64,000 nucleotides of DNA, taken from assembly GCA_000993405.1 (NCBI GenBank), contig LBWB01000009.1, positions 13,848 to 77,847 of the forward strand. The letters are read 5' to 3'. Under the pieces are notes generated by a model, which worked only from the letters and a program-made list of their open reading frames with translations, did no database searches and was not told the DNA's origin. This document shows, piece by piece, positions 21,295-62,757 of the stretch (position 1 is the first letter of the stretch; each line of letters begins with the position of its first letter). Both the position numbers and the translations under genes were made by a program. The DNA comes from Candidatus Woesebacteria bacterium GW2011_GWB1_39_12 (lineage in GTDB: Bacteria > Patescibacteriota > Microgenomatia > UBA8517).

Positions 21295-21373
21295 GTAGGG
21301 GAGATTATAATAACCCGGGAGGTACAAATCAAATTTTCAGTTATTTCTCAGCTTCAGAGGTATAATTTAAATC

Positions 21374-23225: not shown

Positions 23226-23339
23226 ACCTTCGGTGAGTTTACCACGCCTTGTGTGGCCAAGCTTTGCTTATATAACTTGGTTCAAAACTCTTGTTCGTTC
23301 CGTTAAAATACGGAACTCACGGATTTTGAAACAAGTTAT

Positions 23340-23356
23340 AAGCCTTTTCTCAGAAT
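23340..23356 (+). promoter_or_regulatory. Copy 1 of the conserved AGC(C/T)TTTTCTCAGAAT motif upstream of the Spy-like gene
   Basis: agccttttctcagaatg; see copies at 23931, 27438, 27961. Confidence 0.45.
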
Positions 23357-23930: not shown

Positions 23931-23950
23931 TTCAGCTTTTTCTCAGAATT
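23931..23950 (+). promoter_or_regulatory. Copy 2 of the conserved motif (TTCAGCTTTTTCTCAGAATT), 20 nt upstream of the adaptor gene
   Basis: Identical 17-mer to the copy at 27961. Confidence 0.5.
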
Positions 23951-27437: not shown

Positions 27438-27457
27438 TTCAGCTTGTTCTCAGCAAT
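27438..27457 (+). promoter_or_regulatory. Copy 3 of the conserved motif (TTCAGCTTGTTCTCAGCAAT)
   Basis: Upstream of the 27496 gene. Confidence 0.4.
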
Positions 27458-27960: not shown

Positions 27961-27980
27961 TTCAGCTTTTTCTCAGATTT
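27961..27980 (+). promoter_or_regulatory. Copy 4 of the conserved motif (TTCAGCTTTTTCTCAGATTT), followed by TATAAT
   Basis: Upstream of the S9 peptidase gene. Confidence 0.5.
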
Positions 27981-27994
27981 CTTTTCTATAATTT

Positions 27995-29143
27995 TTGCTT
28001 TCGGTTATAATGGATTTTATGTTTTTGAAAAGCAAATTAATCATTCTTCTTCTTGGAATTTTTCTTATCGTCGCGGGAATCGTTTACCTTTCAAGAGATC
28101 GAAACATACCAAAAGTCATAGATAATCTCACTGATAACCCTAACCTCAATTTAGAAGACGAAGGGGGGTTGGAAAGCTCACAACATCCTCTTTCTATAGA
28201 AGCTTTAAGATCCGGTGAATATCCCGGAAGCGATATCGTAATTGAACAAACTCTTGAACCAGGTTCAAATTATAAAAGATATATTGCTTCATACAAATCC
28301 GAAGGCCTAAAAATTTATGGACTTTTGACCGTTCCTTCGACAGGCTCAGGACCATGGCCCGCCATCGTTTTCAACCACGGCTATATTCCCCCAACCCAAT
28401 ATCAAACAACGGAGCGATATGTAGCTTACGTCGATGGGTTTGCAAGAAACGGATATGTCGTTTTCAAACCCGATTACAGAGGTCATGGTAATTCAGAAGG
28501 AGAGCCAACAGGAGCATACGGATCAAGTGGATATACTATAGATGTTTTAAACGCAGTTTCTTCTCTAAAAAGATTAAAGAACCCCGAAAACCAGACAAGT
28601 TTATCCCGAGCGGAGTCGAGGGACTCAGGACGACTTGTTGACTCAAGTCGCATAGGTATGTGGGGACATTCTTTGGGAGGCTATGTTACTTTAAGAAGCA
28701 TGGTAATTTCCAAAGATATTAAGGCAGGTGTTATTTGGGCCGGAGTTGTCGGATCATACGAAGATCTTTTAAATAACTGGCGAAGAAGAAACACTTCTCC
28801 CCCACCCGGAATTCCAACTGGAGCAAGAAGATGGCGCCAAGAATTACAAGAAAAATTCGGAACGCCCGAACAAAATCCCGAGTTTTGGAATTCTATTTCC
28901 GCAAATTCATATTTGACTGACATTTCGGGTCCGCTACAGCTTCATCACGGAACTGCCGATGCGTCTGTTCCAATCGAATTTTCCCAAAAATTAGAAACAC
29001 AGCTGAAAGAAGCTAAAAAAGTGGTTGAATTTTATTCATATAGCGGAGATAATCATAATCTGTCGAATAATTTCTCTCTGGCAATGAGAAGGTCGGTTGA
29101 ATTTTTTGACAAATACTTGAAAAATGGCCCCGCACCAAGTTAA
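27995..29143 (+). CDS. S9 family peptidase / alpha-beta hydrolase (prolyl oligopeptidase-like), membrane-anchored
   Basis: GMWGHSLGGY nucleophile elbow; C-terminal Asp/His (HHGTADASVP). Confidence 0.7.
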   Translation: MLSVIMDFMFLKSKLIILLLGIFLIVAGIVYLSRDRNIPKVIDNLTDNPNLNLEDEGGLESSQHPLSIEALRSGEYPGSDIVIEQTLEPGSNYKRYIASYKSEGLKIYGLLTVPSTGSGPWPAIVFNHGYIPPTQYQTTERYVAYVDGFARNGYVVFKPDYRGHGNSEGEPTGAYGSSGYTIDVLNAVSSLKRLKNPENQTSLSRAESRDSGRLVDSSRIGMWGHSLGGYVTLRSMVISKDIKAGVIWAGVVGSYEDLLNNWRRRNTSPPPGIPTGARRWRQELQEKFGTPEQNPEFWNSISANSYLTDISGPLQLHHGTADASVPIEFSQKLETQLKEAKKVVEFYSYSGDNHNLSNNFSLAMRRSVEFFDKYLKNGPAPS

Positions 29144-32689: not shown

Positions 32690-32715
32690 GTCATCCTGAA
32701 TTTATTTCAGGATCT
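32690..32715. repeat. Palindromic element GTCATCCTGAAtttaTTTCAGGATCT immediately upstream of the PilX-like gene start (second copy at 62732)
   Basis: 8-bp perfect inverted repeat ATCCTGAA/TTCAGGAT; 24/26 nt identical to 62732-62757. Confidence 0.6.
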
Positions 32716-37242: not shown

Positions 37243-38919
37243 TTATTCTTTCGTCACCCTAATTATCTCATCAATGGTTGTTATGCCTTGTTTTACCTTT
37301 CCGATGCCATCCTCCAACATGGTTGTCATTCCATTTTTAACTGCAATTTTTTTAATTTCAGATGACTCTTTTTTGGCAACAATTGCAGTCTTCATTTCGT
37401 CGTCGACTAAAAGTACCTCAAAAATTCCCACGCGACCAACGTAGCCTGTCCCGTGGCACAAATCACAACCCTTACCCTTATATACTCTCAGATTTTTTTC
37501 ATTTGGAAAATACTTTTGCATAATACTTTCCGAAATTTCGTTAATTAAAATGCCGCTAACTTCTTCTGAAACGCGACACTTAAGGCAAATTTTTCTTACC
37601 AAACGCTGGGCAATTACCACATTAACGGTCGTTGCAATAAGAAAAGGTTCAACCCCAAAATCAAGAAGTCTCGGGAAGGCTGTTGCAGCGTCGTTCGTGT
37701 GCAGGGTCGATAAAACCAAGTGTCCTGTCATAGCGGCGTTTATAGAAATGTCTGCGGTTTCTTCGTCACGAATCTCCCCGACCAGAATTATATCGGGGTC
37801 TTGCCTAACTATGGACTTCAAGCCTGCCGCAAAAGTTAAGTTCGTATTCGGATTTACCTGAATTTGATTAACCCCTTCCATGTCGTATTCAACAGGATCT
37901 TCTATTGTCATTATATTCACATTCCTTTTGTTCAAGAGTTTCAAAACCGCATAAAGGGTCGTGGTTTTACCGCTTCCGGTGGGCCCTGTTGACAAAATCA
38001 TCCCGTGAGGCTTGTTGTAAGCGCTTACGACCTTTTTCAGATCGCTTTCGGAAAAACCAAGATCCTGAAGTGAAAATTGGCGACTTCTCTCGGATAAAAG
38101 CCGCATGACAACTTTTTCACCGTTAGTCACTGGAACAATGGAGATCCTGATATCCAAGTTTTCCTCGGCGAGCTCGACACTTATCTTCCCGTCCTGGGCT
38201 GATTGATGTTCGTCTGTTCTTAAGCGGGCCATAACTTTTACCCTGGTCACTATCTGCGGATGTATCACGGAAGGCAAATTTATAATGTCGTGAAGCATTC
38301 CGTCTATTCTGAAACGTACGGTCGAACCGTCATCCGTTGGCTCAATATGAATATCAGATGAGCGGTTTTGGTAAGCATAGGTGATAATTGTATCTACGAT
38401 TTTAATAATTGAAGGTTCGGCAACCTTGGTACCCTTAGCCTCTTTGACACTTTCCGCAATAATTTCATCAAAGACTTTTGCAATATCTTTTGCATAAAGA
38501 TTGAGGGCATCCTTTATACTTCTTTTGGATGCATAATAGGTTTTTACCGGAATCCCGATCTTCTTGCCTATAAAATCCGGCACTTGTTTGTCAGATGGGT
38601 CATTTAAAACAATGTGCAGTCCTTCCTTATCTCTCTTAAATGCAACGACCATCTGCTTTTTTGCATAAACCTCCGGAATTGTATTTAATACACCCTCATC
38701 TATTGCCGTTTCGGAAAGATTAACAAAAGGATAATTAATAAGATCCGCAATAATCTTGCCGATATTAGTGTCTGAAATTAAATCCTTTTGGACAAGTAAT
38801 TCTTCTAAAGAGATTTTTTTAAGACTCGCTTCCTCAAAGGATTCCTTTAATTTGTCCAAGGGAATGACGTCCAATTCTTTTAAAGTATCAAAAAGTTCCT
38901 GCTCGCTAAAAAGCCTCAT
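37243..38919 (-). CDS. pilB: Type IV pilus assembly ATPase PilB (GspE family)
   Basis: Walker A GPTGSGKTTT, Asp/His boxes, C-terminal CxxC...CxxC zinc site. Confidence 0.9.
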   Translation of the reverse strand: MRLFSEQELFDTLKELDVIPLDKLKESFEEASLKKISLEELLVQKDLISDTNIGKIIADLINYPFVNLSETAIDEGVLNTIPEVYAKKQMVVAFKRDKEGLHIVLNDPSDKQVPDFIGKKIGIPVKTYYASKRSIKDALNLYAKDIAKVFDEIIAESVKEAKGTKVAEPSIIKIVDTIITYAYQNRSSDIHIEPTDDGSTVRFRIDGMLHDIINLPSVIHPQIVTRVKVMARLRTDEHQSAQDGKISVELAEENLDIRISIVPVTNGEKVVMRLLSERSRQFSLQDLGFSESDLKKVVSAYNKPHGMILSTGPTGSGKTTTLYAVLKLLNKRNVNIMTIEDPVEYDMEGVNQIQVNPNTNLTFAAGLKSIVRQDPDIILVGEIRDEETADISINAAMTGHLVLSTLHTNDAATAFPRLLDFGVEPFLIATTVNVVIAQRLVRKICLKCRVSEEVSGILINEISESIMQKYFPNEKNLRVYKGKGCDLCHGTGYVGRVGIFEVLLVDDEMKTAIVAKKESSEIKKIAVKNGMTTMLEDGIGKVKQGITTIDEIIRVTKE

Positions 38920-38978
38920 ACTTCCATATTACCAAGCCCGAAGAGGTTTGACTAGAGACCCGAAGGAGGAAGTGGGTT

Positions 38979-39851
38979 GTGATGGAATTGTGGGTCATAG
39001 AAAATGGACATATAAAGTGTTATATTTCGGTTGTGCCAAAAGAATATCCAATACTTGACTACATCGACGACCCAAACATTTGGAAATACTGGTTAATGGA
39101 AGGAATTCCCAAACCTCACGTTGCAGCAGCCCTTTTAACTAATTGGCTCTCGCAATTTGAAACCGGCACACCTGAACATAACACAGGCTTTTGGACCCAA
39201 AGAGCTGCGATGTTTTATACTTCTGTTAGATGGATTAACTACAATATACGAGGAGAATGGGGTGAGAGAGCGGAAATTGTTAACTGGAATGATTTTCTCT
39301 CAAAGATTTCAGCAATTCCAAAAGATACTGGATTCATATTTTTTCCCGGAAAATTTAGAACACTTCCGACACTCAACCAAGTAGAAACCGTCTATTTTGG
39401 TCTGGAAAACTTAAAAACTAAGAAAATTGTTAGTGCTTTAATTTATGAACCTCGTGAGAACGTATCAACAATTGAAGGTGAGAAAATTGTACTTGATGAC
39501 CAAATAAGGAAATGGGCTTATTCACAATTACCCGTTAACGCAGTTACCAGTTTTCCCATTATTAAAGAAGGAGAAAACGTTACTCAGTTTTACACCGATA
39601 GATACAAAGAAATACGAAATGCTAAAAGAGGTTATGTTGGGGTTGCGGTGGGAGCTAGCATTCACAGAAATGAGATAATTAGACTAAGTCAACAATACGA
39701 CATAGAGGTTGTGGATACATCAATAGGAGTAGACGATAGTTTTAAACCTATCTCTTCACTTGATACAACCGACTTCGACAATCTTTCATCTAAATCAGAC
39801 TTAGCCAATGAGCTAATACTCAAATATCTGCAACATATGGGACAGATTTAG
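38979..39851 (+). CDS. Hypothetical protein
   Basis: 290 aa ORF, no recognisable domain. Confidence 0.45.
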   Translation: MMELWVIENGHIKCYISVVPKEYPILDYIDDPNIWKYWLMEGIPKPHVAAALLTNWLSQFETGTPEHNTGFWTQRAAMFYTSVRWINYNIRGEWGERAEIVNWNDFLSKISAIPKDTGFIFFPGKFRTLPTLNQVETVYFGLENLKTKKIVSALIYEPRENVSTIEGEKIVLDDQIRKWAYSQLPVNAVTSFPIIKEGENVTQFYTDRYKEIRNAKRGYVGVAVGASIHRNEIIRLSQQYDIEVVDTSIGVDDSFKPISSLDTTDFDNLSSKSDLANELILKYLQHMGQI

Positions 39852-39875: not shown

Positions 39876-39891
39876 GAAGGAAATGGGTTCT
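39876..39891. repeat. Family-Y element GAAGGAAATGGGTTCT at the 3' end of the methyltransferase gene
   Basis: One of five copies of GGAGGAAATGGGTTC (39876, 40657, 42404, 42736, 43325; loose copy 20502). Confidence 0.6.
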
Positions 39892-40614
39892 CTATTGTTT
39901 AACTCCAATTAATAATCCTCTTTCCTTCATAAGTCCATTTTTAAAATATTTTGAATCTAATCCCTCTTGCTTCATCAACTCTAAAGTTCTATCTATTTCA
40001 AACATCCCAAGTTCGTGTCTGTCAGAAAAATGGATAACACCTTTACCTTTCTCTGCAACCAAATAATGCATATCCATCACTGATAAGTTTCCATCAGCAG
40101 AAGACACATTTAATCTTGCTATTTTGATATCGGGAGCGTCATAAGTTGTCATATGAGGTGCACCAACTTTATAGGTCTTTTTTGTAAACCAGGGTTCAAT
40201 TATAACTACACCGCCCCTTCTTAAATGCCTAGCAAAGTTTTTTAACGTCCTTTGTAAATTTTCATAAGTTTTAACATATCCTATTGAACTAAATAAACAA
40301 GTAATTATGTCAAACTGTTTACCTAATTCCATATTAATCATGTCTGCTTGCCTAAAATCGATATTTTTTAGCCGCTGTCTTGCCATTTTTAACATACCGT
40401 CATTTATATCTACTCCTACACATTTAAATTCTTTCTTTAAATGTTCTAGATGTTTACCAGTTCCACAAGCAACTTCTAATAGCTCGTTTCTACTGGATTT
40501 CTTAAACCGTCCGATTAGCTTTTTAACTTTTAAAGCCTCTTCCCGATAATCTTTAAAAGAATATATAAGGTCGTAGTATTTGGCTGAATTTTTATATAAG
40601 AGTTGTTTTTTCAT
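39892..40614 (-). CDS. Class I SAM-dependent methyltransferase
   Basis: Motif I LEVACGTGKH; 240 aa. Confidence 0.8.
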   Translation of the reverse strand: MKKQLLYKNSAKYYDLIYSFKDYREEALKVKKLIGRFKKSSRNELLEVACGTGKHLEHLKKEFKCVGVDINDGMLKMARQRLKNIDFRQADMINMELGKQFDIITCLFSSIGYVKTYENLQRTLKNFARHLRRGGVVIIEPWFTKKTYKVGAPHMTTYDAPDIKIARLNVSSADGNLSVMDMHYLVAEKGKGVIHFSDRHELGMFEIDRTLELMKQEGLDSKYFKNGLMKERGLLIGVKQ

Positions 40615-40656
40615 TAACTGAAGTATATCAAATTTACAGAATTATCAAGAAGCCGT

Positions 40657-40670
40657 GGAGGAAATGGGTT
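40657..40670. repeat. Family-Y element GGAGGAAATGGGTT
   Basis: Downstream of the ZIP gene stop. Confidence 0.6.
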
Positions 40671-40684
40671 ATCAACTTCAATTA

Positions 40685-41506
40685 TTAACCCAGAGCAACG
40701 TCTAAAATCATCATTATTGTAAAACCCAGCATTGCGCCGATTGTGGCAACGTCGGTTGAATTTTTCTGTGATTCGGGAATGATTTCTTCAACCGATACAT
40801 AAATCATTGCTCCTGCTGCAAATGCAAGCGCATAAGGCAAAAGCGGGCGCATAGCCAAAATACCGACTACTCCGATAACCGCAGCAATAGGCTCAACAAT
40901 CGCCGATCCCTGACCAAAGAGAAAACTCTTTAATTTCCCTACACCCACACGCCTGAAGGGCATTGAAACCGCAAAGCCTTCTGGAAAATTCTGGATTCCG
41001 ATGCCTATGGCCAGAGCAATTGCACTAGCAATAGTTGCTCCGGGAATACCGGCCGCCGCTGCGCCAAATGCAACCCCCACCGCTAGCCCTTCGGGAAAAT
41101 TATGAAATGTTATTGCCAGAAACAGAAGAACGGTAGTATGCCAGCCTGTGGGTAAACCCTCAGGACGCGATCGCGATTTAACAATATTCAGGTGCGGCAG
41201 AATTTTATCCACAATCCATAAAAAAGCCCCTCCTGTTAGAAAACCTATTGCAGGAGGCACCCATTTTATTACACCCAATTGCCCACTGAGAACTATGGAC
41301 GGAGCCAGGAGAGACCAAAAACTGGCAGCGATCATAACGCCGGCCGCAAACCCAAGCATCGCGTCAAGCAACTTTTGTGTAACAGTGCGAAAGACAAATA
41401 CCCCTCCCGCACCGAGTGCCGTCATTCCCCAAGCAAAGAGACCTGCAATAAGTGCAGCAAATATTGGATGGTTGACTAGTACTGTTTGATCCATTAAATT
41501 GAACAT
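40685..41506 (-). CDS. ZIP family metal transporter (ZupT-like)
   Basis: HNFPEGLAVGVAF signature, 8 TM helices. Confidence 0.85.
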   Translation of the reverse strand: MFNLMDQTVLVNHPIFAALIAGLFAWGMTALGAGGVFVFRTVTQKLLDAMLGFAAGVMIAASFWSLLAPSIVLSGQLGVIKWVPPAIGFLTGGAFLWIVDKILPHLNIVKSRSRPEGLPTGWHTTVLLFLAITFHNFPEGLAVGVAFGAAAAGIPGATIASAIALAIGIGIQNFPEGFAVSMPFRRVGVGKLKSFLFGQGSAIVEPIAAVIGVVGILAMRPLLPYALAFAAGAMIYVSVEEIIPESQKNSTDVATIGAMLGFTIMMILDVALG

Positions 41507-41624
41507 ATTTTACTCTAAGAACTTATATTTACTATACTAGTTCCAAATGAAGATATCACAGGTTAAAACCCATGATATCTTCTCGCTAAATATTGATTTT
41601 TGCTTCATCCCCTAGTTGTGGTAT

Positions 41625-42317
41625 TTAATATTCTTCTACTACTCTGGGTCTATCTATATACAGGAGGGTTTTACTATTTACGATTTCAATAACCTCGTCC
41701 ACTGTTGCAAAAACATTTTTTAATTTTCTATATTCTTTCTCACTCATCCAAATGTTTCTACCTTCAGGAACAAGCTTCTTTAATTTTCCTTTAACATTAT
41801 CCACCCTATAAACCCAGAAGTATTTATCCTCCAAAAGTCTACCGTCTTTATGGAAATGGTGGTAATGGATAATTCCTTTCAATTCGAATTTTCCTGTCAA
41901 ACCGGTTTCTTCAAGAAACTCTCTCTTGGCACAATCTTGTGGATTTTCTCCCCATCTTATTTTTCCGCTATGGCTGCCGTACCAGCCGTAAAAAGGTTCT
42001 TTCAATCTTTGGTGCACAAGATACTCTGTAATTCCTTTATGTTCTCTTACTGCATGAAGAGCAACGGCCAGTTTTGCTTGCCTTTCGAGTTTCAAAGCAT
42101 CGGTGTCCATTCTATTAGCAAACTCCTTGCCGTCATCCGTAAGAGAATACCTTCCGTTTGTTTTTACCACTAAACCTTCTTTTAATAAGTGTTTAAGGTG
42201 GAAAGTAAAATGGTCGTTTGTTATGTCAACCTTTTTGAGGTCTCTAAATCTTGCGTTGGGTTTAAAAAGAAGTTCCCGTAAAATTGAAATTTGAAATTCG
42301 TGAATTTTGATTTCCAT
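41625..42317 (-). CDS. NUDIX hydrolase with N-terminal winged-helix DNA-binding domain
   Basis: HTH-like N-terminus; Nudix box GKIRWGENPQDCAKREFLEETGL. Confidence 0.65.
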   Translation of the reverse strand: MEIKIHEFQISILRELLFKPNARFRDLKKVDITNDHFTFHLKHLLKEGLVVKTNGRYSLTDDGKEFANRMDTDALKLERQAKLAVALHAVREHKGITEYLVHQRLKEPFYGWYGSHSGKIRWGENPQDCAKREFLEETGLTGKFELKGIIHYHHFHKDGRLLEDKYFWVYRVDNVKGKLKKLVPEGRNIWMSEKEYRKLKNVFATVDEVIEIVNSKTLLYIDRPRVVEEY

Positions 42318-42403
42318 GTTTACCGCTATTATTTACCACAAAATTCCAGAAGTCTAGTATAGTCAACTTAACCAAATGGATATTATCTAGTTTTCTAAGG
42401 CTG

Positions 42404-42418
42404 GAGGGGAAATGAAGT
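42404..42418. repeat. Family-Y element variant GGAGGGGAAATGAAG
   Basis: Immediately 3' of the 42420 gene stop. Confidence 0.45.
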
Positions 42419-42419
42419 A

Positions 42420-42719
42420 TTATGCAGTAGGGTGAATTTGAACTTTCTTCTCAACCTTTTCCATTCTTGGTTCAAGGTCATCATAAACCTTACTCGTCAA
42501 TACAATCTGTTCTTCTCTCATCGTTTTCAGCTCGGTCATTATCTCATCCATTTTGCTAAAGAAGTCTTCCTTAGACGGAAAATGCTTTAGTTTTTCATTA
42601 AGTTTCTCTTCCAATTCTTCATCAATAGTAATTTTCATCAAATCTTTAATTGCGTTTAAATCCTTATCTGTAAGTGCCATATTGCTATTTAAGTATATAA
42701 AAGAAAATCTGTCAATCAT
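42420..42719 (-). CDS. Hypothetical coiled-coil protein
   Basis: 99 aa charged/helical ORF. Confidence 0.45.
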   Translation of the reverse strand: MIDRFSFIYLNSNMALTDKDLNAIKDLMKITIDEELEEKLNEKLKHFPSKEDFFSKMDEIMTELKTMREEQIVLTSKVYDDLEPRMEKVEKKVQIHPTA

Positions 42720-42735
42720 TTAAAATCACATCTCT

Positions 42736-42750
42736 GGAGGAAATGGGTTC
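42736..42750. repeat. Family-Y element GGAGGAAATGGGTTC overlapping the stop of the NUDIX gene
   Basis: Seen in sequence. Confidence 0.6.
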
Positions 42751-43275
42751 TTATCCATTCTTGTCTACTCTCTGATTGAGAGATTTTACCAGTTGTGAGT
42801 TTTTCCATTGGATGTTTGTGTACAAAATACCTGGTTTGTCGTTAAGTACGTGGTCAAAATAATATTTCGCTGGCGGAAAAACGTTATCCATAACAAGTAG
42901 TTCTTCAAGTGGTATCCATTTGGCATTTCCTTCCAGATCTTCTTTTTTTTCCTTTTGGTTTTTCTTGATGGTTGCCAGAAAGACAAAAGATACCCAGACT
43001 TCTTTCCTATCCATGTGGTGATGAAGAGCTATACCCTTCAATTTTATGTCGTCTAAATCAACTTTAACTCCAGCCTCTTCGTCTATTTCTCTTACAGCTG
43101 CCAAAAGAGCATCTTCATCATGATCGATATGGCCACCCGGTCCAATCCAAAAACCCGGAAATTTACTGGCAGTGTCGCTTCTTTTGAACATCAATACTTT
43201 GCCATCTTTGATTACATAGCACTCCGACGCAAGCATTATCTGGCCTAGCTCGTCTAAATGCTTTGATTCATTCAT
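42751..43275 (-). CDS. NUDIX hydrolase
   Basis: Nudix box GPGGHIDHDEDALLAAVREIDEEAGV. Confidence 0.8.
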   Translation of the reverse strand: MNESKHLDELGQIMLASECYVIKDGKVLMFKRSDTASKFPGFWIGPGGHIDHDEDALLAAVREIDEEAGVKVDLDDIKLKGIALHHHMDRKEVWVSFVFLATIKKNQKEKKEDLEGNAKWIPLEELLVMDNVFPPAKYYFDHVLNDKPGILYTNIQWKNSQLVKSLNQRVDKNG

Positions 43276-43324
43276 ACAGAATTAATTATATAATACTTTA
43301 GGCAATATAATGCGAAAATGCTGC

Positions 43325-43339
43325 GGGGGAAATGGGTTC
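43325..43339. repeat. Family-Y element GGGGGAAATGGGTTC overlapping the EamA gene stop
   Basis: Seen in sequence. Confidence 0.6.
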
Positions 43340-44221
43340 TTAAGTTCTTCTATATAAAACAGCATTTATATTTGGAAGTATTGCGGCTGAAATTATTAAT
43401 AAACCACCAAGATATGTCGCAGGTTGAGGATACTCCTTGAAAACAAAATAGGAAAATAGTGTTGCGAATATAATCTCGACCGGTAGAATAATGCTTCCTA
43501 CCTGGGCTTCGATATTTTTAAACCCGTAAACTATCAGGCCGACATTTACTGTTTGGACAAGTGCATAGACAAATATCCAAAACCATTTAACTGAAGAGGA
43601 TTCCATTGGCAGTTTTTCTTTAAAAAGCATGGATCCAATAAGTGCAGCAATTACCCCCCCCGCCGCATCCATCATAACTATTTGGTTATTAGAATAATGA
43701 TCAGAGAACTTCTTCGAAATCGTATTCCAAACACCTGTCATAAATCCGGATGTAAAAGCCAGAATAACATAAATGACTTCGTTTGAGCTAATACTAAATC
43801 TGTAAATTATTACAAGTCCCAGAAAGCAAAGCACCAAAGACGCAGTTTTTGAAATATTTAACTTCTCTTTAAAAAATATCTTCCCGGAAATGAATCCTGC
43901 AGCAATCATCGACGAATAAATTATCAAATATGTCGTTCCGATTTGGAGATTGTTAAATGCAATAAATGTTAAAACCGTCACCCAAGATCCGGATAAAAGC
44001 CATAAAATAATCCATTTCAGATCTTCCTTTCGAATTGCCAGAAGCTTGGTCTTTCTTATGACTATCACGCCAGCAATTAATGCGAGAACAATCAGGTTTC
44101 TTACCCAGTTTTGACTAAAACTTCCAAAAGAAGTTCCAATTAATCTTGAAAATATCCCATAAAGTCCATAAAATCCCGCAGCAGTAAAAAGTGAAATTGC
44201 ACCAAACTTCTGATTCTTCAT
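43340..44221 (-). CDS. EamA/DMT family transporter
   Basis: 293 aa, ~10 TM helices. Confidence 0.7.
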   Translation of the reverse strand: MKNQKFGAISLFTAAGFYGLYGIFSRLIGTSFGSFSQNWVRNLIVLALIAGVIVIRKTKLLAIRKEDLKWIILWLLSGSWVTVLTFIAFNNLQIGTTYLIIYSSMIAAGFISGKIFFKEKLNISKTASLVLCFLGLVIIYRFSISSNEVIYVILAFTSGFMTGVWNTISKKFSDHYSNNQIVMMDAAGGVIAALIGSMLFKEKLPMESSSVKWFWIFVYALVQTVNVGLIVYGFKNIEAQVGSIILPVEIIFATLFSYFVFKEYPQPATYLGGLLIISAAILPNINAVLYRRT

Positions 44222-44241
44222 TACAAATTAAATTTTATCAC

Positions 44242-44313
44242 GATCCTGAGTGAAATCGAAGGATTATAATCCTGAGTTCATCGAAGGACTCCGGAGTTAA
44301 TTTGAAGACAAAT
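44242..44313. repeat. Extended family-X element (72 nt): direct repeats ATCCTGAGT..TCGAAGGA x2, palindrome AGGATTATAATCCT, CTCCGGAG, AATTTGAAGACAAAT
   Basis: ~95% identical to 46013-46083; contains a TATAAT hexamer inside the palindrome. Confidence 0.7.
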
Positions 44314-44819
44314 TATTTATTGATTTTATACCTGTTAAATGCCTCCACAAATCCCGGTGGAAAATCTTTTGGGTTATCTTCCATCATTTTTTCCACAGTA
44401 GCCAAACTAAACCATCGCCCGCCACTCAGCTCATTCTGGTCCAACATTATCGCTCCGTCAAAAATAGTTGTGTAAAGAGTACTAAATTCTTTTAGTAACT
44501 GTCCCTTAAAATCTTGCTCTTTGTAAAATTTTGTAATCCTATCCAGTGTCGAGGTGCTAATCCCCAATTCTTCTCTCAACTCACGCATTGCAGCTTCATC
44601 GTAAGTTTCACCCTCATCAACATGTCCGCCCGCTGATTGATCCCATGTGTCAGGGTAAGTTGTCATACTAGCACTCCTCCTTTGAAGGTACATCTCACCC
44701 TTACTGTTAAATACAAATATTCTAACAATTCTTCTTATTAAACCATTTTTAAATGCAGTCTCTTTATCCTCCGAGCCAACGACATTATCATTCTTATCAA
44801 CAATTACCACTTTCGACAT
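44313..44819 (-). CDS. NUDIX hydrolase (IPP-isomerase-like fold)
   Basis: Nudix box SAGGHVDEGETYDEAAMRELREELGI. Confidence 0.75.
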   Translation of the reverse strand: MSKVVIVDKNDNVVGSEDKETAFKNGLIRRIVRIFVFNSKGEMYLQRRSASMTTYPDTWDQSAGGHVDEGETYDEAAMRELREELGISTSTLDRITKFYKEQDFKGQLLKEFSTLYTTIFDGAIMLDQNELSGGRWFSLATVEKMMEDNPKDFPPGFVEAFNRYKINK

Positions 44820-44841
44820 AATGAAATTATATCATTTTCTT

Positions 44842-44864
44842 CTGGAGTCAATTTGAAGACAAAT
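44842..44864. repeat. Family-X core CTGGAGTCAATTTGAAGACAAAT
   Basis: Between the DUF5615 stop and the NUDIX start. Confidence 0.6.
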
Positions 44865-44880
44865 ATTCTTTCCTGAAATT

Positions 44881-45258
44881 TTAACTAACTATCCTAAAAC
44901 CTGTTTCCTTGACTACAGTTAGTTTATTGTTTAAGTTTATTGAGGGTTTTGGATTCTCAATAAACCTTCTGAGAATTTCATTGACGTTCTCGGGTGTTTG
45001 ATTTTTTGTTCGTACATGTATTATTCCAATCTTGCCCTTCTCACGGAAATACCATAGATCCGCAAAATCACGGTCAAAGGTAATAATAATTCTTGCTTCC
45101 CTTTTAGCTTTCTTCACTACCTCTTCATCAGACAAATAATGAAGCTTTTGCTCAAGAATTGAGGTAGCATCAAAATTAAGATTTCTCAAAAATTCTGCAG
45201 TAAGTGGAGAAAGATTTGCATCCAAAAGAAATTTAGGCAAAGTTGTAGTTTTCCTCAC
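44881..45258 (-). CDS. DUF5615 (PIN-like) protein, second copy
   Basis: KFLLDANLSP...ARIIITFDRDF. Confidence 0.65.
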   Translation of the reverse strand: MRKTTTLPKFLLDANLSPLTAEFLRNLNFDATSILEQKLHYLSDEEVVKKAKREARIIITFDRDFADLWYFREKGKIGIIHVRTKNQTPENVNEILRRFIENPKPSINLNNKLTVVKETGFRIVS

Positions 45259-45460
45259 GATTTAACTTCTCTGCTGCAAATGCGAGCGCTGCCTCAATTT
45301 GCTTTCTGGTAATAGGTGGGTAAGCTTTCGCTATTTTTTCAAAAGTGTATCCATTTGCAAGAAGGTTAAGGATAGTTCCCACAGGAATCCTAGTGCCTTT
45401 TATGACGGGCTTACCAACCATCACCTTCGGATTGATTTCAATATACTTATCGTATTTCAT
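45233..45460 (-). CDS. DUF433 protein, second copy (overlaps DUF5615 gene by 26 nt)
   Basis: VMVGKPVIKGTRIPVGTILNLLANGYT. Confidence 0.7.
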   Translation of the reverse strand: MKYDKYIEINPKVMVGKPVIKGTRIPVGTILNLLANGYTFEKIAKAYPPITRKQIEAALAFAAEKLNREENYNFA

Positions 45461-45516
45461 ACCCGTTATTGTAGCACTTCAATCAAGACGTAGTAAGTGC
45501 AGAACTTCCACAAAAC

Positions 45517-45541
45517 CTCCGGAGCTAATTTGAAGACAAAT
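45517..45541. repeat. Family-X core CTCCGGAGCTAATTTGAAGACAAAT abutting the HIT gene stop
   Basis: Seen in sequence. Confidence 0.6.
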
Positions 45542-45996
45542 TATAAATTTTCCTTTAATTCTTTAATGATCTTTATTAGAACGTCTTCGGGTTGTAAAAA
45601 GATTCTATCTTGCCCTCGAGCATAATGTGAGCCAAATTCAGGATCTTTAAAGGTAAGTCCTGCAAACTTCACGTCTCTTTCATATCTTGGCCTTACATGC
45701 CAATGAATATGCGGATTAGCCGTTTTTTCTTTAAAAGCATTATTCATTAAACAGGACCAATTGATGAGTTTCGCATCAAAAGTTCTTTTAAAACAACTTT
45801 CAAGTTTTCTTACTAATTCAGAAAAATCTAACCATTCGTCTTTTGTTAATTCAGAAAGACTTCCGCAATGCCTTTTTAAAGAAACAAAAGAACGTCCTAA
45901 ATATTCCTGATTTTCATTGATATCAACTTTCCAAAATTTAGTTTGAGTAATCGTTCTACCGAAATTATTCAGAAAAGGGCAAACATCGCAGTTCAT
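45541..45996 (-). CDS. HIT family hydrolase
   Basis: HIHWHVRP histidine triad; N-terminal CxxC. Confidence 0.7.
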   Translation of the reverse strand: MNCDVCPFLNNFGRTITQTKFWKVDINENQEYLGRSFVSLKRHCGSLSELTKDEWLDFSELVRKLESCFKRTFDAKLINWSCLMNNAFKEKTANPHIHWHVRPRYERDVKFAGLTFKDPEFGSHYARGQDRIFLQPEDVLIKIIKELKENL

Positions 45997-46012
45997 GAGC
46001 CAATTTTACCAT

Positions 46013-46083
46013 GATCCTGAGTCAAATCGAAGGATTATAATCCTGAGTTTACCGAAGGACTCCGGAGCTAATTTGAAGACAAA
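46013..46083. repeat. Extended family-X element, second copy, in the divergent region between the HIT and SGNH genes
   Basis: ~95% identity to 44242-44313. Confidence 0.7.
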
Positions 46084-46113
46084 TGATTATTTCAGATACG
46101 ATACAATGGTTGG

Positions 46114-46971
46114 ATGGATATTCAAAAAAAGGATGTTTTCATACGATTGTTATCTCTTTCTGTTCTTTTTCTTATTTTCGTCGCCTCCTTATCAAATGTT
46201 CAAAGACCTCAGAAAGTTAATCCTGCGCGGGGATTCAACCCGACATACACGCCCACTCCTATCCCTTTTAATCCTTTTCCTTACAAAATTCCAACCATTC
46301 CTTATTCCCGTGCGTATCGAACGATGCTCGTCGGAGATTCAATAGTCGGCTCTCTCGGGCCAAACGCAGACCGCCTGCGCCAACACCTGATAGTTTTTTA
46401 CCCGAGTCATGAATTTGTTAACTATAATTACGGTTTCGGCGCAACCAGTATAGAAACGTTACCAGAGAGACTCGCTGAAAATACTGTTTATAGAGGTCAA
46501 AGTTATCAGCCGATTTTATCCCAGGGCTTTGATCTTATCATTGTAGAATCATTTGGCTACAATCCCCTCTCGCAGTTAAATGAAGGGGAAGGCCTTGCAA
46601 AACACATGCAAATTTTGGACGAAAACATAAAGAAAATTATCATAGAAAAACCCCACTCAGTAGTTGCAATAATGACCCCAATTGCTCCGAATAAAAGTTA
46701 TTTTGCGAAGGGCGTCTATGACCTTTCCTCAGAGGAAAGAATTAAGTGGGCAAATGAGCGGATTTCATATATCGAAGCCGTAATTGTCTATGCGAAGGAT
46801 AACGAAATTCCTCTCATTAATGTTTATGAGAAATCTTTGACCGCCCAAGACGACGGCAATCTAGCCTACATCAATCCGGATGATTATGTTCACCCCTCAG
46901 CCGAGGGTATTGAACTTATTAGTAGAACTATTGCGGAATTCATCTTTAGCGCTAAAATCTTCCCGGAGTAG
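46114..46971 (+). CDS. SGNH/GDSL-type hydrolase, secreted
   Basis: Block I LVGDSIVGS; block V DDYVHPS; N-terminal signal anchor. Confidence 0.65.
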   Translation: MDIQKKDVFIRLLSLSVLFLIFVASLSNVQRPQKVNPARGFNPTYTPTPIPFNPFPYKIPTIPYSRAYRTMLVGDSIVGSLGPNADRLRQHLIVFYPSHEFVNYNYGFGATSIETLPERLAENTVYRGQSYQPILSQGFDLIIVESFGYNPLSQLNEGEGLAKHMQILDENIKKIIIEKPHSVVAIMTPIAPNKSYFAKGVYDLSSEERIKWANERISYIEAVIVYAKDNEIPLINVYEKSLTAQDDGNLAYINPDDYVHPSAEGIELISRTIAEFIFSAKIFPE

Positions 46972-46975
46972 ACAA

Positions 46976-47539
46976 TTACTTAAACATAACCACCCATTTA
47001 TAATCTGGAAGAATCAGAAGCGGAAGTTTTTCCTTGTAAGAAGCTAGTTTTTTGATTATCTTTATATCCCCTTGCTTATAATGACAATACGACTTTATAT
47101 CTAGAATTCCCAAACCTCTCTCAATTTTCTGAACTTCGTTTCCGTAATAATACTTAGCCAGACAATTTACTCCAGCAGACGAACCTCCAACAACCTTACC
47201 CTCAAGTAACTTACCAAGATTTTTTGTTACCGCAAGTTTCTTGATCAACTTATCTGTTGCAAAACCACCCGCAAGATAGATAAGATCAGCCCATTTCACC
47301 TGCTCAGGGAAGTTATTAACTTCTGCTAATTTAAACTCGACATTTTTACCCTTAGCAAAATACCTGAATGTCTCGCTGTGCCGTTTAAATTTATCTTCAA
47401 CTTTATTCTCGTCGCTTGCAAAATAAGTCATAAGAAGATTGAGGTTTTCTTTATTTCCGATAGTCATTTCTTTAAAGAAACCGTAGTTGTCTTGATTTTT
47501 GTCGCCAAGATTCCCGCCGTGCAAAACAAATTTAATCAT
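46976..47539 (-). CDS. Peptidase S51 (dipeptidase E/cyanophycinase-like) family protein
   Basis: GGSSAG nucleophile motif. Confidence 0.6.
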   Translation of the reverse strand: MIKFVLHGGNLGDKNQDNYGFFKEMTIGNKENLNLLMTYFASDENKVEDKFKRHSETFRYFAKGKNVEFKLAEVNNFPEQVKWADLIYLAGGFATDKLIKKLAVTKNLGKLLEGKVVGGSSAGVNCLAKYYYGNEVQKIERGLGILDIKSYCHYKQGDIKIIKKLASYKEKLPLLILPDYKWVVMFK

Positions 47540-47561
47540 TAGCGAATTATATCAAATTTCT

Positions 47562-47583
47562 CGAAGCTAATTTGAAGACAAAT
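47562..47583. repeat. Family-X core CGAAGCTAATTTGAAGACAAAT
   Basis: Between the receiver gene stop and the S51 gene start. Confidence 0.6.
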
Positions 47584-47602: not shown

Positions 47603-47977
47603 TCATTGGGCTGGGCCGATGAGGGATTGGAGCTTGGCGACCAAACCCGTTATTGCAAAATCAGTTTTGACAATGTAGTCTTTAGCTCCCAAGCCCATTG
47701 CTTTCTCTATATCTTCTTTTTGACCTAAGTTAGAGGCAACAATAACAGGAATATTTTTCCACTCGTCATTTTTCTTCATCTCGGAAAGAACCGAGAAACC
47801 GTCCTTTTTTGGCATTACCAAGTCCAATATAATAAGATCGAATTTGCCCTTTTGAAGCGCCGCAAGTGTTTCCTCACCGTCTGCAACCAAAGTTACGTCG
47901 TATGAAGCTTTAGTAAGTTTTACTCTATAGGCATTTGCTAAAAATTTATCATCTTCGGCAACAAGTATTTTCTTCAT
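47603..47977 (-). CDS. Single-domain response regulator (CheY-like receiver) 3
   Basis: ILVAEDD...DLIILDLVMPKKDG...K; 124 aa. Confidence 0.85.
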   Translation of the reverse strand: MKKILVAEDDKFLANAYRVKLTKASYDVTLVADGEETLAALQKGKFDLIILDLVMPKKDGFSVLSEMKKNDEWKNIPVIVASNLGQKEDIEKAMGLGAKDYIVKTDFAITGLVAKLQSLIGPAQ

Positions 47978-61445: not shown

Positions 61446-62726
61446 CTACAGACGAGATTTTGTAATAGCTTCTATCACTTGATCGATTGTGAGAAGCTCG
61501 GTTTTTTCGGAAGCCCTGCTTTTCCACTCAATTTTATCTTTAGTTTTTTCTGAAGTTACCAATCTCACAGGAATACCTATAAGATCCGCATCTGCGAACT
61601 TCTCTCCGGCTCCAACATTTCTATCATCCCACAGAGCTTCAATACCCGAATCCTCTAATTTCTGGTAAATCTCCTTTGCTCTTTGGCCTTTGTCGTTTGT
61701 CCTGATGTCCAATAAATGGACATCAAAAGGAGCAATGGTCTTATTCCATATTATTCCCCGCTCATCATGGCTAACCTCAACCCATGTACCCATTACCCTT
61801 GTTGAGCCAATGCCGTAAGAACCAAACCAGACAGGTTTTCTCATTCCCTTTTCATCGGTATAGTAAACCCTCATTCTCTCAGAATAATATGTTCCGAAAG
61901 GGAAAATATTACCTACTTCAATCGATTTGGATTGCCTGATCGAACCTTTCTTACAAACCGGGCACGTAATTACCCCTCCGGGCCCGAGGCCCTCCGGGCC
62001 GGGGGCTTTAAAAATTTCTTGATTTTGTGCAAAGTCGCATTTTTCGCAATAGTAAATTGTGTCTTCTCCTCCTTCTGCTAAAACTTGGAACTCATGAGTA
62101 TTATTGTCCGTAAATACGCCCCCTGCTGCCTCTGTAATTTTGAAATCAAAACCTAATCGCTTAAATACCCGGCAGTAAGCTTTCTTTACTTCCTCGTAAT
62201 ATTTCCAAAAATCCTCTTCTCCCGCGTGAATAGAATATAAATCCTTCATCATAAATTCCCGTCCCCTTAAGATTCCAGACCGAGCTCTTGGCTCATTCCT
62301 GAACTTCGTTGAAAAATGATAAAGTGCCAAAGGCAAATCCTGATAGCTTGTTATGTGTTTTCTTACCAAATCCAAAACTATTTCCTCATGAGTGAAACCT
62401 AGTCCCAAGTCCTTATTCCGACTGTCTTTAAGTTGATACATTATTTCGCGAGCGGTGTCCCATCTTCCGGTTTCTTGCCAAACTTCTTTGGGATGCATCA
62501 AAGGCATTAATATCTCCTGAGCTCCGGTTGAATTCATCTCTTCTCTTATAATTTGATTTATTTTATTAACCACTCGCCATCCCATTGGAAGAAGAGTCCA
62601 GCTCCCGGCCATCAGTTGATCGATAAATCCTGCGCGGACCAGAAGTTTATGATTAATGCTTTCCGCGTCTTTAGGAGCTTCTTTTTTTGTTTTTGGAAAA
62701 AGTGACGATTGTCTCATAAGCGTCAT
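61446..62726 (-). CDS. proS: Proline--tRNA ligase (bacterial type lacking the editing insertion)
   Basis: Class II motifs, zinc-binding CPVCKKG; 426 aa; GC-rich low-complexity insert at 61982-62015. Confidence 0.9.
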   Translation of the reverse strand: MTLMRQSSLFPKTKKEAPKDAESINHKLLVRAGFIDQLMAGSWTLLPMGWRVVNKINQIIREEMNSTGAQEILMPLMHPKEVWQETGRWDTAREIMYQLKDSRNKDLGLGFTHEEIVLDLVRKHITSYQDLPLALYHFSTKFRNEPRARSGILRGREFMMKDLYSIHAGEEDFWKYYEEVKKAYCRVFKRLGFDFKITEAAGGVFTDNNTHEFQVLAEGGEDTIYYCEKCDFAQNQEIFKAPGPEGLGPGGVITCPVCKKGSIRQSKSIEVGNIFPFGTYYSERMRVYYTDEKGMRKPVWFGSYGIGSTRVMGTWVEVSHDERGIIWNKTIAPFDVHLLDIRTNDKGQRAKEIYQKLEDSGIEALWDDRNVGAGEKFADADLIGIPVRLVTSEKTKDKIEWKSRASEKTELLTIDQVIEAITKSRL

Positions 62727-62731
62727 CCTGA

Positions 62732-62757
62732 ATTCATTTCAGGATCTCTGGATATAA
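62732..62757. repeat. Second copy of palindromic element GTCATCCTGAAttcaTTTCAGGATCT, spanning the GIY-YIG stop and the proS upstream region
   Basis: 24/26 identical to 32690-32715; followed by a second hairpin ATAAATCCctgaatccAGGATTTAT (62762-62788). Confidence 0.6.

Follow-up and report, generated by a model that had tools for sequence, protein, structure and literature searches.

The closest described counterparts of the gene array analysed here are pdif modules, the minimal mobile elements of Neisseria, integrons, and the PeSL repeats of T4-type phages. The pdif modules of Acinetobacter plasmids depend on Xer and are built on 28-bp sites with 11-bp arms and a 6-bp spacer, set in alternating orientation, while Neisseria minimal mobile elements have no repeats punctuating the individual genes. 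Integrons, and the clusters of attC sites lacking an integron integrase (CALIN), are recognized by attC sites of 57-141 nt with R'' (RYYYAAC) and R' (GTTRRRY) boxes, L''/L' boxes and extrahelical bases. PeSL repeats, which combine a promoter with a stem-loop and start at the stop codon of the upstream gene, are found in hyperplastic regions of small ORFans (PMC2839356; PMC4122927), and recombination between them results in modular shuffling and in mini-circles (Arbiol et al. 2010, PMC2839356; Comeau et al. 2014, PMC4122927). Here we describe an array of small genes in Candidatus Woesebacteria bacterium GW2011_GWB1_39_12, in a 64-kb stretch of contig LBWB01000009.1 (the window, to which all positions refer unless a locus number precedes them), in which the genes are bounded by copies of two short repeats, X and Y.

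On balance, we consider it probable that this is a PeSL-like, integrase-less cassette array, whose repeats punctuate transcription and at the same time provide the crossover points, and that recombination is most likely homology-driven (see below). Bacteria of the Candidate Phyla Radiation (CPR), or Patescibacteria, have tiny genomes and are believed to rely on hosts and on taking up DNA; the acquisition and turnover of their accessory genes are poorly understood. The arrays are a recurrent architecture for modular gene gain and loss in this major uncultured lineage, with no visible integrase, and their repeats of 15-20 nt are predicted to double as transcription signals. No description of X or Y elements was found in the searchable literature on CPR promoter motifs, on intergenic repeats of Woesebacteria, or on integrons and cassettes of Patescibacteria.

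A hypervariable slot next to pilB

The array of X/Y-bounded small genes occupies 38.9-47.6 kb of the window, between a HisKA-RR-RR-RR cluster (RR, response regulator) on one side and pilB on the other. The conserved left flank is the third response-regulator gene of the cluster (47603..47977, minus strand), and the conserved right flank is pilB itself (37243-38919, minus strand). The minus strand holds all array genes except two, and the elements are therefore read in the gene sense. The window also encodes ribosomal proteins, tRNA synthetases, DnaX and RecR.

PilB was used as the anchor protein for comparing the locus with its relatives. In the closest of these, L160 (PilB 91% identical), the same flanks enclose six other genes (MOSC, a split EamA and unknowns) together with X and Y copies, and a Y directly 5' of the pilB promoter (L160:7016) matches the one at 38965 in the window. 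In L161 (PilB 69% identical) the HisKA-RR-RR-RR cluster adjoins pilB across a gap of 134 nt, and in L162 (64% identical) HisKA-RR-RR does so across 54 nt; neither X nor Y is found in these gaps or in the 21-kb stretches of the two relatives. With the slot empty in two relatives and filled with different genes in a third, the 38.9-47.6 kb segment is a hypervariable insertion slot between conserved flanks, which remain syntenic at 64-91% amino acid identity. Among conspecific assemblies (GW2011_GWB1_39_12-type genomes from the Rifle aquifer, whose proteins are identical to those of the window) the gene order is invariant. One such assembly, L007, breaks right after the HIT gene, at the X/module repeat (see below), which fits either assembly fragmentation or strain variation. 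The scan of the window for tRNA and tmRNA genes gave no match, so that this is not a tRNA-linked island; the GC content of the island (0.35-0.37 versus 0.38-0.41) is slightly lower, which is not diagnostic.

Recurrence of the arrays

The exact X pattern was searched for in one genome per species, and then in metagenomes. The first scan found X in nine metagenome-assembled genomes (MAGs) of Woesebacteria, with up to seven copies per contig, and only single chance matches in unrelated AT-rich genomes; the metagenome scan gave 106 loci. De-duplication left about 180 X contexts and about 80 Y contexts. Though the loci were retrieved without use of Y, this element occurs in them up to once per kilobase (L058, L079, L013). 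The arrays have constant polarity: in the direction of transcription, an X sub-array is followed by a Y sub-array (window, L101, L049, L079, L038, L127, L033, L140), and the transition is often marked by an 'empty' X-Y junction of 20-60 nt (L101, L132, L160, L022, L056, L013, L122, L075).

The 279 inter-element intervals have a median length of 687 nt, and their open reading frames (ORFs) fall into 197 families; a co-directional ORF dominates 148 intervals, and a reversed one 29. Among 133 representatives searched against Pfam there are 11 NUDIX proteins, five methyltransferases, four each of S51, EamA and GNAT, and three each of glyoxalase, HIT and HAD, and inspection by eye of the array loci revealed many pairs of RelE, HigA, BrnT/A and HicA/B type. 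The commonest unit-encoded family is DUF5674 (about 112 aa; 10 copies in 7 clusters at 90% identity, e.g., L024:1692-2027).

Typical X/Y arrays were also met in MAGs labelled 'uncultured Gammaproteobacteria' (L012, L024, L033, L038, L041, L049; GTDB MAGs SRP050083_co1_427, co3_9, co1_18), where units share 75-95% amino acid identity with the ZIP, NUDIX, HIT and DUF433 genes of the window; these contigs are almost certainly mis-binned or mislabelled Woesebacteria DNA. A phage origin was considered and rejected: X is absent from IMG/VR, and the Y pattern gave only single matches, which, given the length of the pattern and the size of the collection, were judged to be chance matches. The X and Y cores are simple tags by which the flexible gene pool of Woesebacteria can be found and catalogued in metagenomes, and they also account for assembly breaks at array loci.

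Gain, loss and shuffling of units

Units made of gene and repeat are gained, lost and re-ordered one at a time between related genomes, with breaks inside the cores. All-against-all comparison of the loci, with indels of at least 250 nt considered, produced 43 co-linear locus pairs with such an indel, and in most of them X or Y lies at the boundaries. In one of the clearest cases, L089 and L151 have flanks that are 98.9% identical, between which L089 contains a unit of 712 nt (a predicted promoter of its own, a 210-aa membrane protein and a Y core) flanked by two Y cores, and L151 a single Y; the crossover falls inside CCATTTCCTCC. A Y-bounded unit indel between L101 and L038 has its boundary directly after CCTCC. 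The DUF433-DUF5615 unit, found at 44881-45460 in the window, stands between two X cores in L127, L114 and L038, while L045 has one X and no unit. L131 and L148 differ by one unit, and in the comparison of L049 and L100 with L148 the inserted segment holds four X copies.

The order of shared units also changes: it is HIT, toxin-antitoxin-like pair, NUDIXa in the window, NUDIXa, toxin-antitoxin in L127, L114 and L038, and toxin-antitoxin, another unit, NUDIXa in L101 and L053. Homologues of the window HIT protein (70-86% amino acid identity) occur in other X arrays next to different neighbours. Pairs of X junctions that share both neighbours are almost confined to near-identical sequences (108 of 117 at 97% nucleotide identity or more, and the other 9 at 90-97%), and all 18 such Y pairs are at 97% or more; among pairs below 90% identity, 409 for X and 32 for Y have just one neighbour in common. 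Orthologous junction pairs at 65-93% identity, sought for a test of purifying selection on the cores, were not present among the loci. Nor did locus alignments of at least 300 nt at 80% identity or more contain any X-only or Y-only indel, and the mobile unit is therefore the gene with its repeat, not the repeat alone. No small circular contigs made of units were found among the loci.

The first-pass annotation of the window, made from its letters, had taken the region for a cassette array or genomic island. This reading is supported by the non-syntenic slot, by gain and loss unit by unit, including the presence and absence of single gene-and-repeat units between near-identical genomes, and by the breakpoints inside X or Y. 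The observations named there as refuting it, motifs at ordinary gene ends and a perfectly syntenic locus, did not turn up: the motifs are confined to the island in the window, and the locus is variable in relatives; the confinement holds for the 64-kb window and for the array-less 21-kb stretches of relatives.

X and Y in the window

In the gene sense, X reads AATAATTTGTCTTCAAATTAGCTCCGGAG; the five copies in the window all lie within the array, on the minus strand. The plus-strand query CTCCGGAGYTAATTTGAAGACAAAT with at most 3 mismatches matched at 44289, 44840, 45517 and 46060, with 0 matches expected from shuffles, and a repeat-family search of the window added a fifth copy, in register, at 47559. 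The array opens with this last copy, ATTTGTCTTCAAATTAGCTTCGAGA in the gene sense (47559..47583), which follows the stop of the third response-regulator gene by 19 nt and precedes the -10 box of the S51 gene by 24 nt. The next (46060..46084) sits in the divergent gap between the SGNH gene (plus strand) and the HIT gene (minus strand), with no co-directional gene upstream. The third copy (45517..45541) overlaps the HIT stop by 1 nt and forms the 5' boundary of the DUF433-DUF5615 unit, whose 3' boundary is the fourth (44840..44864, 2-3 mismatches), 16 nt after the DUF5615 stop and upstream of NUDIXa. With the fifth (44289..44313), which shares 1 nt with the NUDIXa stop, the X copies end and the Y sub-array follows. 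Outside the array, only chance-level matches with 3 mismatches occur in the 64-kb window. The five copies of the first-pass annotation are thus real and in register, with three of its positions (44842, 46059 and 47562) off by 1-3 nt.

Two of these copies are extended into a module, which had been noticed earlier and is now delimited as an 87-nt repeat (44231-44317 and 46002-46088, 92% identical). Its repeating unit of about 25 nt is TCCTTCGnTnnACTCAGGAT, and two such units stand in tandem between the X core and an extended -10 box. In one copy (46013..46059, minus strand) the units are TCCTTCGGTAAACTCAGGAT-TATAA and TCCTTCGATTTGACTCAGGAT-CATGG, between the X core and the HIT -10 box TGGTAAAAT, with the palindrome AGGATTATAATCCT inside; the other two-unit copy of about 50 nt (44242..44288, minus strand) separates the fifth X from the EamA -10 box TGATAAAAT. 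Possibly the 25-nt unit is an operator; alternatively, its insertion may uncouple the -10 box from X. Versions with one or two TCCTTCGnTnnACTCAGGAT units between an X core and a CGTGATAAAAT-type -10 box occur also in L043, L062, L069 and L089, and strings similar to the unit, TCCTTCGACnnGCTCAGGA, are seen at 28333 in the window (inside a called coding gene), at L161:2957 and at L034:4975. A 21-nt near-identical palindrome, ATCCTGAATTYATTTCAGGAT, whose CAGGAT half-site recurs in the module units beside X, is located at 32693-32713 and 62725-62745, directly 5' of two minus-strand start codons; the genes behind it, a 123-aa ORF heading a pilus gene block and a 423-aa gene of tRNA-synthetase class, are unrelated.

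Y reads (TAA)GAACCCATTTCCTCC in the gene sense. The plus-strand query GGAGGAAATGGGTTC matched with 0-1 mismatch at 39876, 40657, 42736 and 43325, and with 2 mismatches at 38965; at up to 3 mismatches there are 8 matches in the window against 2.0 expected, and no shuffle gave 8. All copies are on the minus strand. Two of them follow a stop with no gap: GAACCCATTTCCCCC (43325..43339) after EamA, and the exact GAACCCATTTCCTCC (42736..42750) after NUDIXb. A degenerate copy with a 1-nt insertion, CTTCATTTCCCCTCC (42404..42418), comes 1 nt after the stop of the 86-aa ORF. TAACCCATTTCCTCC (40657..40671) lies 13 nt after the ZIP stop and is followed by ACGGCTTCTTGA, 17-18 nt and then the TATACT box of the predicted methyltransferase promoter. 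At the convergent end of the methyltransferase gene, GAACCCATTTCCTTC (39876..39890) follows the stop by 1 nt; having no gene downstream, it cannot be part of a promoter there. A terminal Y-like copy, CAACCCACTTCCTCC (38965..38979), is directly upstream of the pilB promoter. The rest of the 64-kb window has only chance-level matches with 3 mismatches. The five Y copies recorded earlier have all held, the one at 42404 as a degenerate form, and so has their placement at or after stop codons, with distances of 0, 0, 1, 1 and 13 nt for Y, and with X either overlapping the stop by 1 nt or following it by 16 or 19 nt.

Predicted transcription signals

Across the loci, the conserved X block is sharply bounded (A/ATTTGTCTTCAAATTAGC/T), with an A-rich 5' side and a moderately conserved 3' side, YCGGAGTAAAAT. 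It can form an AT-rich hairpin of 5-7 bp, (TA)ATTTG-TCTT-CAAAT(TA), and some copies carry a GC-rich hairpin of about 19 nt in the loop (L160, L038, L131; GGACG/CGTCC versus GAACG/CGTTC). The upstream stop is -1 to +9 nt from X in 70 of 100 cases, the TAA within AATAA being the stop itself in 22, and the downstream start codon is mostly 18-35 nt away. X contains the -35-like TTGTCT, which in 52 of 181 copies is followed exactly 17 nt later by a -10-like hexamer, against a background of about 2 per offset; minor peaks are at 24 and 28 nt. In 27 of the 58 predicted X promoters the start codon is 6-8 nt past the -10, which is the geometry of leaderless mRNAs. The canonical composite of these 52 copies consists of a stop, a hairpin overlapping TTGTCT, a 17-nt spacer, TAAAAT, 6-8 nt and ATG. 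X had been described as a 3' element; it does stand at gene ends, but the 17-nt peak in the relatives makes it also the -35 and spacer half of the next gene's predicted promoter.

In 39 of 63 cases the first base of Y lies -2 to +6 nt from the upstream stop, and the distances to the next start codon vary broadly (median 42 nt). The Y sequence GAAMCCATTTCCTCC is followed by GCGGCTTC(TGA), and one or two nested GC-rich hairpins may stand between them. The medium-length forms fold into a three-part imperfect hairpin (-11 to -19 kcal/mol), and the medium and long forms of relatives have a T-rich run about 10 nt past the stem. Arms of the type CCACC/GGCGG are frequent in Y, and these would give G-T or G-U pairs on the bottom strand only. 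In several copies CTTCTGA occurs 17 nt before a TATACT or TATAAT box. Three other roles for Y were tried and rejected: those of an ECF-type -35 box and of a -35 box at fixed distance, since Y is separated from the -10 box by variable lengths (22-29 nt and more), and that of an opposite-strand small ORF (GGAGGAAATG...), since the length of these antisense mini-ORFs is not conserved.

In the window, predicted -10 boxes precede most units, each 6-10 nt before the ATG in a leaderless-type architecture. The S51 gene has the TGn-extended box TGATATAAT (47546..47551, minus strand) 6 nt before its ATG; the other boxes, likewise on the minus strand, belong to HIT (46003-46008), DUF433 (45468-45473), NUDIXa (44826-44831), EamA (44232-44237), NUDIXb (43285-43290), the 86-aa ORF (42687-42692) and the methyltransferase (40622-40627). 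TATAAT-like boxes 5-10 nt before the ATG, with no Shine-Dalgarno sequence, are found also at many first genes of transcription units outside the array (e.g., those starting at 16581, 20530(-), 21374, 27995, 36100(-), 48797(-), 59062(-)), and this suggests that leaderless mRNAs may be widespread in this Woesebacteria genome; strong GGGGGTGA or GGAGG sites are present instead at other genes (23427, 29279, 29852(-)). Because leaderless-type boxes are common window-wide, X would be an extra, island-specific layer on a genome-wide promoter style.

Several empty X-Y junctions have a canonical X promoter, TTGTCT-17-TAAAAT (L022, L056, L075, L160:5890-5975, L101:8564-8640). Transcription from such an X would start at about the first base of Y and would yield a hairpin RNA of about 45-60 nt; with its exposed anti-Shine-Dalgarno-like CCUCC and U-rich end, this predicted product could be a small RNA. 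A separate motif of the window, TCAGCTTTTTCTCAGA (plus strand), has 7 matches with at most 3 mismatches against 1.2 expected, five of them between 21 and 28 kb (21337-21352, 23339-23354, 23932-23947, 27439-27454, 27962-27977). At least four of these five are just 5' of genes, namely an OmpR-type response regulator/HisKA pair, a membrane-fusion/ABC/MacB-FtsX transporter operon and their neighbours, and from its position the motif looks like an operator of that two-component system.

Genes of the window array

Pfam matches of the array proteins comprise methyltransferase, ZIP, winged helix-turn-helix (wHTH) plus NUDIX, NUDIX, EamA, NUDIX, DUF5615, DUF433, HIT and S51, with a weak GDSL/SGNH match. 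They bear out the gene content listed in the first-pass annotation, which had missed the 86-aa ORF at 42420-42680. In the direction of transcription, the X sub-array begins with an S51-family peptidase gene (46976..47539, minus strand), whose unit includes the weakly matched GDSL/SGNH gene on the opposite strand (46114-46971, plus). It continues, all on the minus strand, with the genes for a HIT-family protein (45541..45996), the toxin-antitoxin-like unit (44881..45460; DUF433 at 45233-45460, DUF5615/PIN-like at 44881-45258), NUDIXa (44313..44819) and an EamA transporter (43340..44221). The X-to-Y transition of this array falls at the EamA unit, the only one flanked by X at the 5' and by Y at the 3' end.

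The Y sub-array genes together span 39892..43275 on the minus strand: NUDIXb (42751-43275), the 86-aa ORF, which has no Pfam match, wHTH-NUDIX (41625-42317), ZIP (40685-41506) and an S-adenosylmethionine-dependent methyltransferase (39892-40614). The junction between wHTH-NUDIX and ZIP is the only one in the array with neither X nor Y, and holds instead a 10-bp perfect inverted repeat read from the sequence, GAAGATATCA-N14-TGATATCTTC (41549..41582, no strand assigned). The last slot gene before pilB is a 289-aa ORF on the plus strand (38982..39851) with no Pfam match.

Competing explanations

In the PeSL-like array that we favour, each unit would comprise a predicted leaderless-type promoter, whose TGn-extended -10 box precedes the ATG by 6-10 nt, then one or two small accessory genes, a stop, and an X or Y core. 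X would give the -35 and the spacer to the -10 box of the next unit. Y would contribute the 5' half of an imperfect hairpin, and GCGGCTTC, with which the next unit starts, would complete it; with the optional GC-rich hairpin and CTTCTGA box, Y would stand before the next promoter. The directly repeated cores would be the crossover points for deletion, insertion, replacement and re-ordering of units, like pairing with like, X with X and Y with Y; with recombination limited to X-X and Y-Y, the X-then-Y order of the sub-arrays would be kept. The likely route would be short-repeat deletion together with double crossovers on DNA taken up by these cells, which bear pilus and competence functions, and PeSL cassettes are believed to work in this manner. 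The promoter geometry has statistical backing from the spacing peak; promoter and terminator activity, as well as the enzymology of recombination, we infer. If recombination is indeed driven by homology, the shuffling of 'regulatory cassettes' of PeSL type reaches from phages to cellular chromosomes.

Several observations weigh against this explanation. In the window, the canonical distance of 17 nt to a -10 box is seen at none of the five X copies: TTGTCT is separated from it by 24 nt at S51, 25 nt at NUDIXa and about 55 nt at DUF433, and by the interrupting module at HIT and EamA, which makes promoter use of X in the window doubtful. The window Y copies are of the short form and have no stable hairpin (the X hairpin included, values range from 0 to -8 kcal/mol), so that terminator activity of Y is unsupported there. 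A generic scan of 38.9-47.7 kb for sigma-70 promoters and terminators gave counts not above those in shuffles; the scan is uninformative because the DNA is AT-rich and the promoters are of the extended -10 kind. Judged by these features, the cores in the window array resemble conserved boundaries between units more than they do working parts of promoters or terminators. Finally, a core of 15-20 nt offers little length for RecA-dependent recombination, and yet the cores hardly vary between species and have sharp limits, a pattern that fits recognition by a protein at least as well.

The last point leads to the alternative that X and Y are dedicated recombination sites, analogues of attC, for a recombinase that is encoded elsewhere and would excise and integrate units of gene and site, the sites perhaps being recognized as folded single strands, with the promoter features secondary; we regard this as unlikely, though worth serious consideration. 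The short, nearly invariant and sharply bounded cores speak for it, and so does the place of the conserved element, which ends each unit next to or across the stop codon. It is also favoured by the co-orientation of units (148 versus 29 of 279) with their 687-nt median and integron-like content (NUDIX, GNAT, glyoxalase, toxin-antitoxin), by precise unit indels that leave one core, by the want of an evident promoter or terminator role for most window copies, and by the architecture of both elements, where a conserved base with optional apical GC-rich hairpins resembles the variable terminal structure of attC. The enzyme itself did not come to light. The first-pass annotation had pointed to IntI or another tyrosine recombinase as the thing to look for, and neither was found in the searched window genes or in about 1 Mb of related arrays: the Pfam-annotated called genes at about 4-11 kb and 16-64 kb of the window include no recombinase, integrase or transposase; the tyrosine-recombinase motif HxLRH[STA] is absent from 1929 ORFs of the window and about 1 Mb of related array loci; and a Y1-transposase query over the loci found one partial Y1_Tnp-like ORF only, in L147, 6 kb from the array. 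The Rfam scan of the whole window gave no family at gathering score. Site-specific recombination is further opposed by the mismatch with the R'' and R' boxes of attC, by the fact that X and Y never intermix, which is expected if recognition is by identity and less so if it is by structure, and by the strong 17-nt spacing peak, which shows selection on X for promoter function. In its fullest form, this alternative would amount to integron-like gene capture in Woesebacteria and perhaps other CPR, X and Y being short hairpin sites for a non-adjacent recombinase (a host Xer-type, an HUH-type, or a new one), and the captured gene would bring or receive a leaderless promoter, half of it supplied by the site. 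We hold this, too, to be unlikely; if true, it would be a new class of gene capture and a possible source of very compact recombination sites.

Less probable still is a purely regulatory nature of X and Y, as the operator of a regulon, the promoter for a specific factor, or a 3'-end or terminator element of stress and 'housecleaning' genes, with the differences in order due to ordinary intergenic rearrangements. The promoter geometry of X agrees with it, the X palindromes ATTTG-N4-CAAAT and CTCCGGAG overlap the -35 and spacer in the manner of operators, Y is tightly coupled to stops, and a putative regulator, wHTH-NUDIX, is encoded in the array. Yet X and Y also stand at convergent ends and empty X-Y junctions, where there is no gene to regulate (39876 in the window; L037, L022, L056, L013), and they accompany about 200 unrelated gene families, including many toxin-antitoxin pairs; moreover, the indel breakpoints fall repeatedly and exactly in the cores, and adjacency is lost far faster than among the flanking core genes.

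That X and Y are small repeats which moved autonomously into intergenic regions already present, akin to repetitive extragenic palindromes (REP), to the mosaic elements built of them (BIME) or to miniature inverted-repeat transposable elements (MITE), is very improbable and largely refuted: they are short, hairpin-capable and intergenic, with short and long subfamilies, and some copies have outward promoter signals, as Correia elements do, but no repeat-only indel separates homologous intergenic regions, the copies are clustered, with none in the other 55 kb of the window or in L161 and L162, they have neither terminal inverted repeats nor target-site duplications, and no gene for a REP-associated tyrosine transposase (RAYT) accompanies the arrays. 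On these grounds the REP-like label of the first-pass annotation is to be dropped, since copies are clustered instead of dispersed and element-only insertion polymorphism is not seen.

Comparison with known systems

Three kinds of elements were set aside as counterparts. REP/BIME with RAYT do not correspond to arrays that are clustered and have no associated RAYT gene, the partial Y1_Tnp-like ORF of L147, 6 kb away, being the only candidate; MITEs are not matched for want of terminal inverted repeats, target-site duplications and element-only polymorphism; and a DNA uptake sequence was rejected because the copies are clustered and not genome-wide.

The likeness to integrons and CALIN is extensive. 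Here, too, co-oriented single-gene units of about 0.5-1 kb are each followed, directly after the stop, by a hairpin-capable repeat, and a hypervariable locus with conserved flanks gains, loses and reshuffles units singly. The cargo is of the same kind (NUDIX, GNAT, glyoxalase, methyltransferases, toxin-antitoxin pairs, many unknowns), and the sequence of the repeat is conserved by species or clade, as in the repeats of Vibrio integrons (VCRs). The differences are in the sites and in the machinery. The X core (TAATTTG-TCTT-CAAATTA) and Y (GAAMCCATTTCCTCC...GCGGCTTC) are without the boxes of attC and measure 15-35 nt, or up to about 75 nt with inserts; there are two site families, which do not intermix; and the apparent crossover is in the 5' arm or centre of the structure, not in the GTT of a 3' R' box. 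No IntI, attI or cassette promoter Pc was found at the arrays, IntI being required for a complete integron and not for CALIN, and whereas integron cassettes are mostly promoterless and under a common Pc, the units here have their own predicted -10 boxes. The resemblance to attC drawn in the first-pass annotation is therefore a formal one, valid for the 3' position, and it fails on the R''/R' boxes, the far shorter length, the missing IntI and the separate promoters of units. The phenomenology of a cassette array in a genomic island is supported; membership of the array in the integron family is not.

With pdif modules and Neisseria minimal mobile elements the arrays have in common the integrase-less, modular exchange of small gene sets flanked by conserved short sites or conserved flanks, a cargo that includes toxin-antitoxin genes, and a spread plausibly achieved by host recombination and transformation. 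The X arms of 5-7 bp, with all copies in direct orientation, set them apart from pdif.

The PeSL system remains the nearest. It belongs to T4-type phages, and the arrays to a cellular CPR chromosome; its genes are preceded by Shine-Dalgarno sequences, whereas those of the arrays appear leaderless; and mini-circles and promoter and terminator activity belong to its description, promoter and terminator activity in the arrays being predicted. The arrays have two repeat families in a fixed X-then-Y order, and conservation of the X spacer and of the Y core goes far beyond the needs of a promoter. Y, placed 3' in the unit, lacks a promoter of its own, and many copies have weak hairpins. In both systems, however, a short composite intergenic repeat starts at the upstream stop in an AT-rich stretch, reaches to the downstream start codon and includes a sigma-70-like promoter, predicted in the arrays, whose -35 can be overlapped by the stem-loop, and in both, hyperplastic regions of small non-essential genes differ between close relatives by indels and replacements that break inside the repeats. 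By its predicted features, X appears to fit the description of PeSL closely, the five copies of the window in part, and Y partly.

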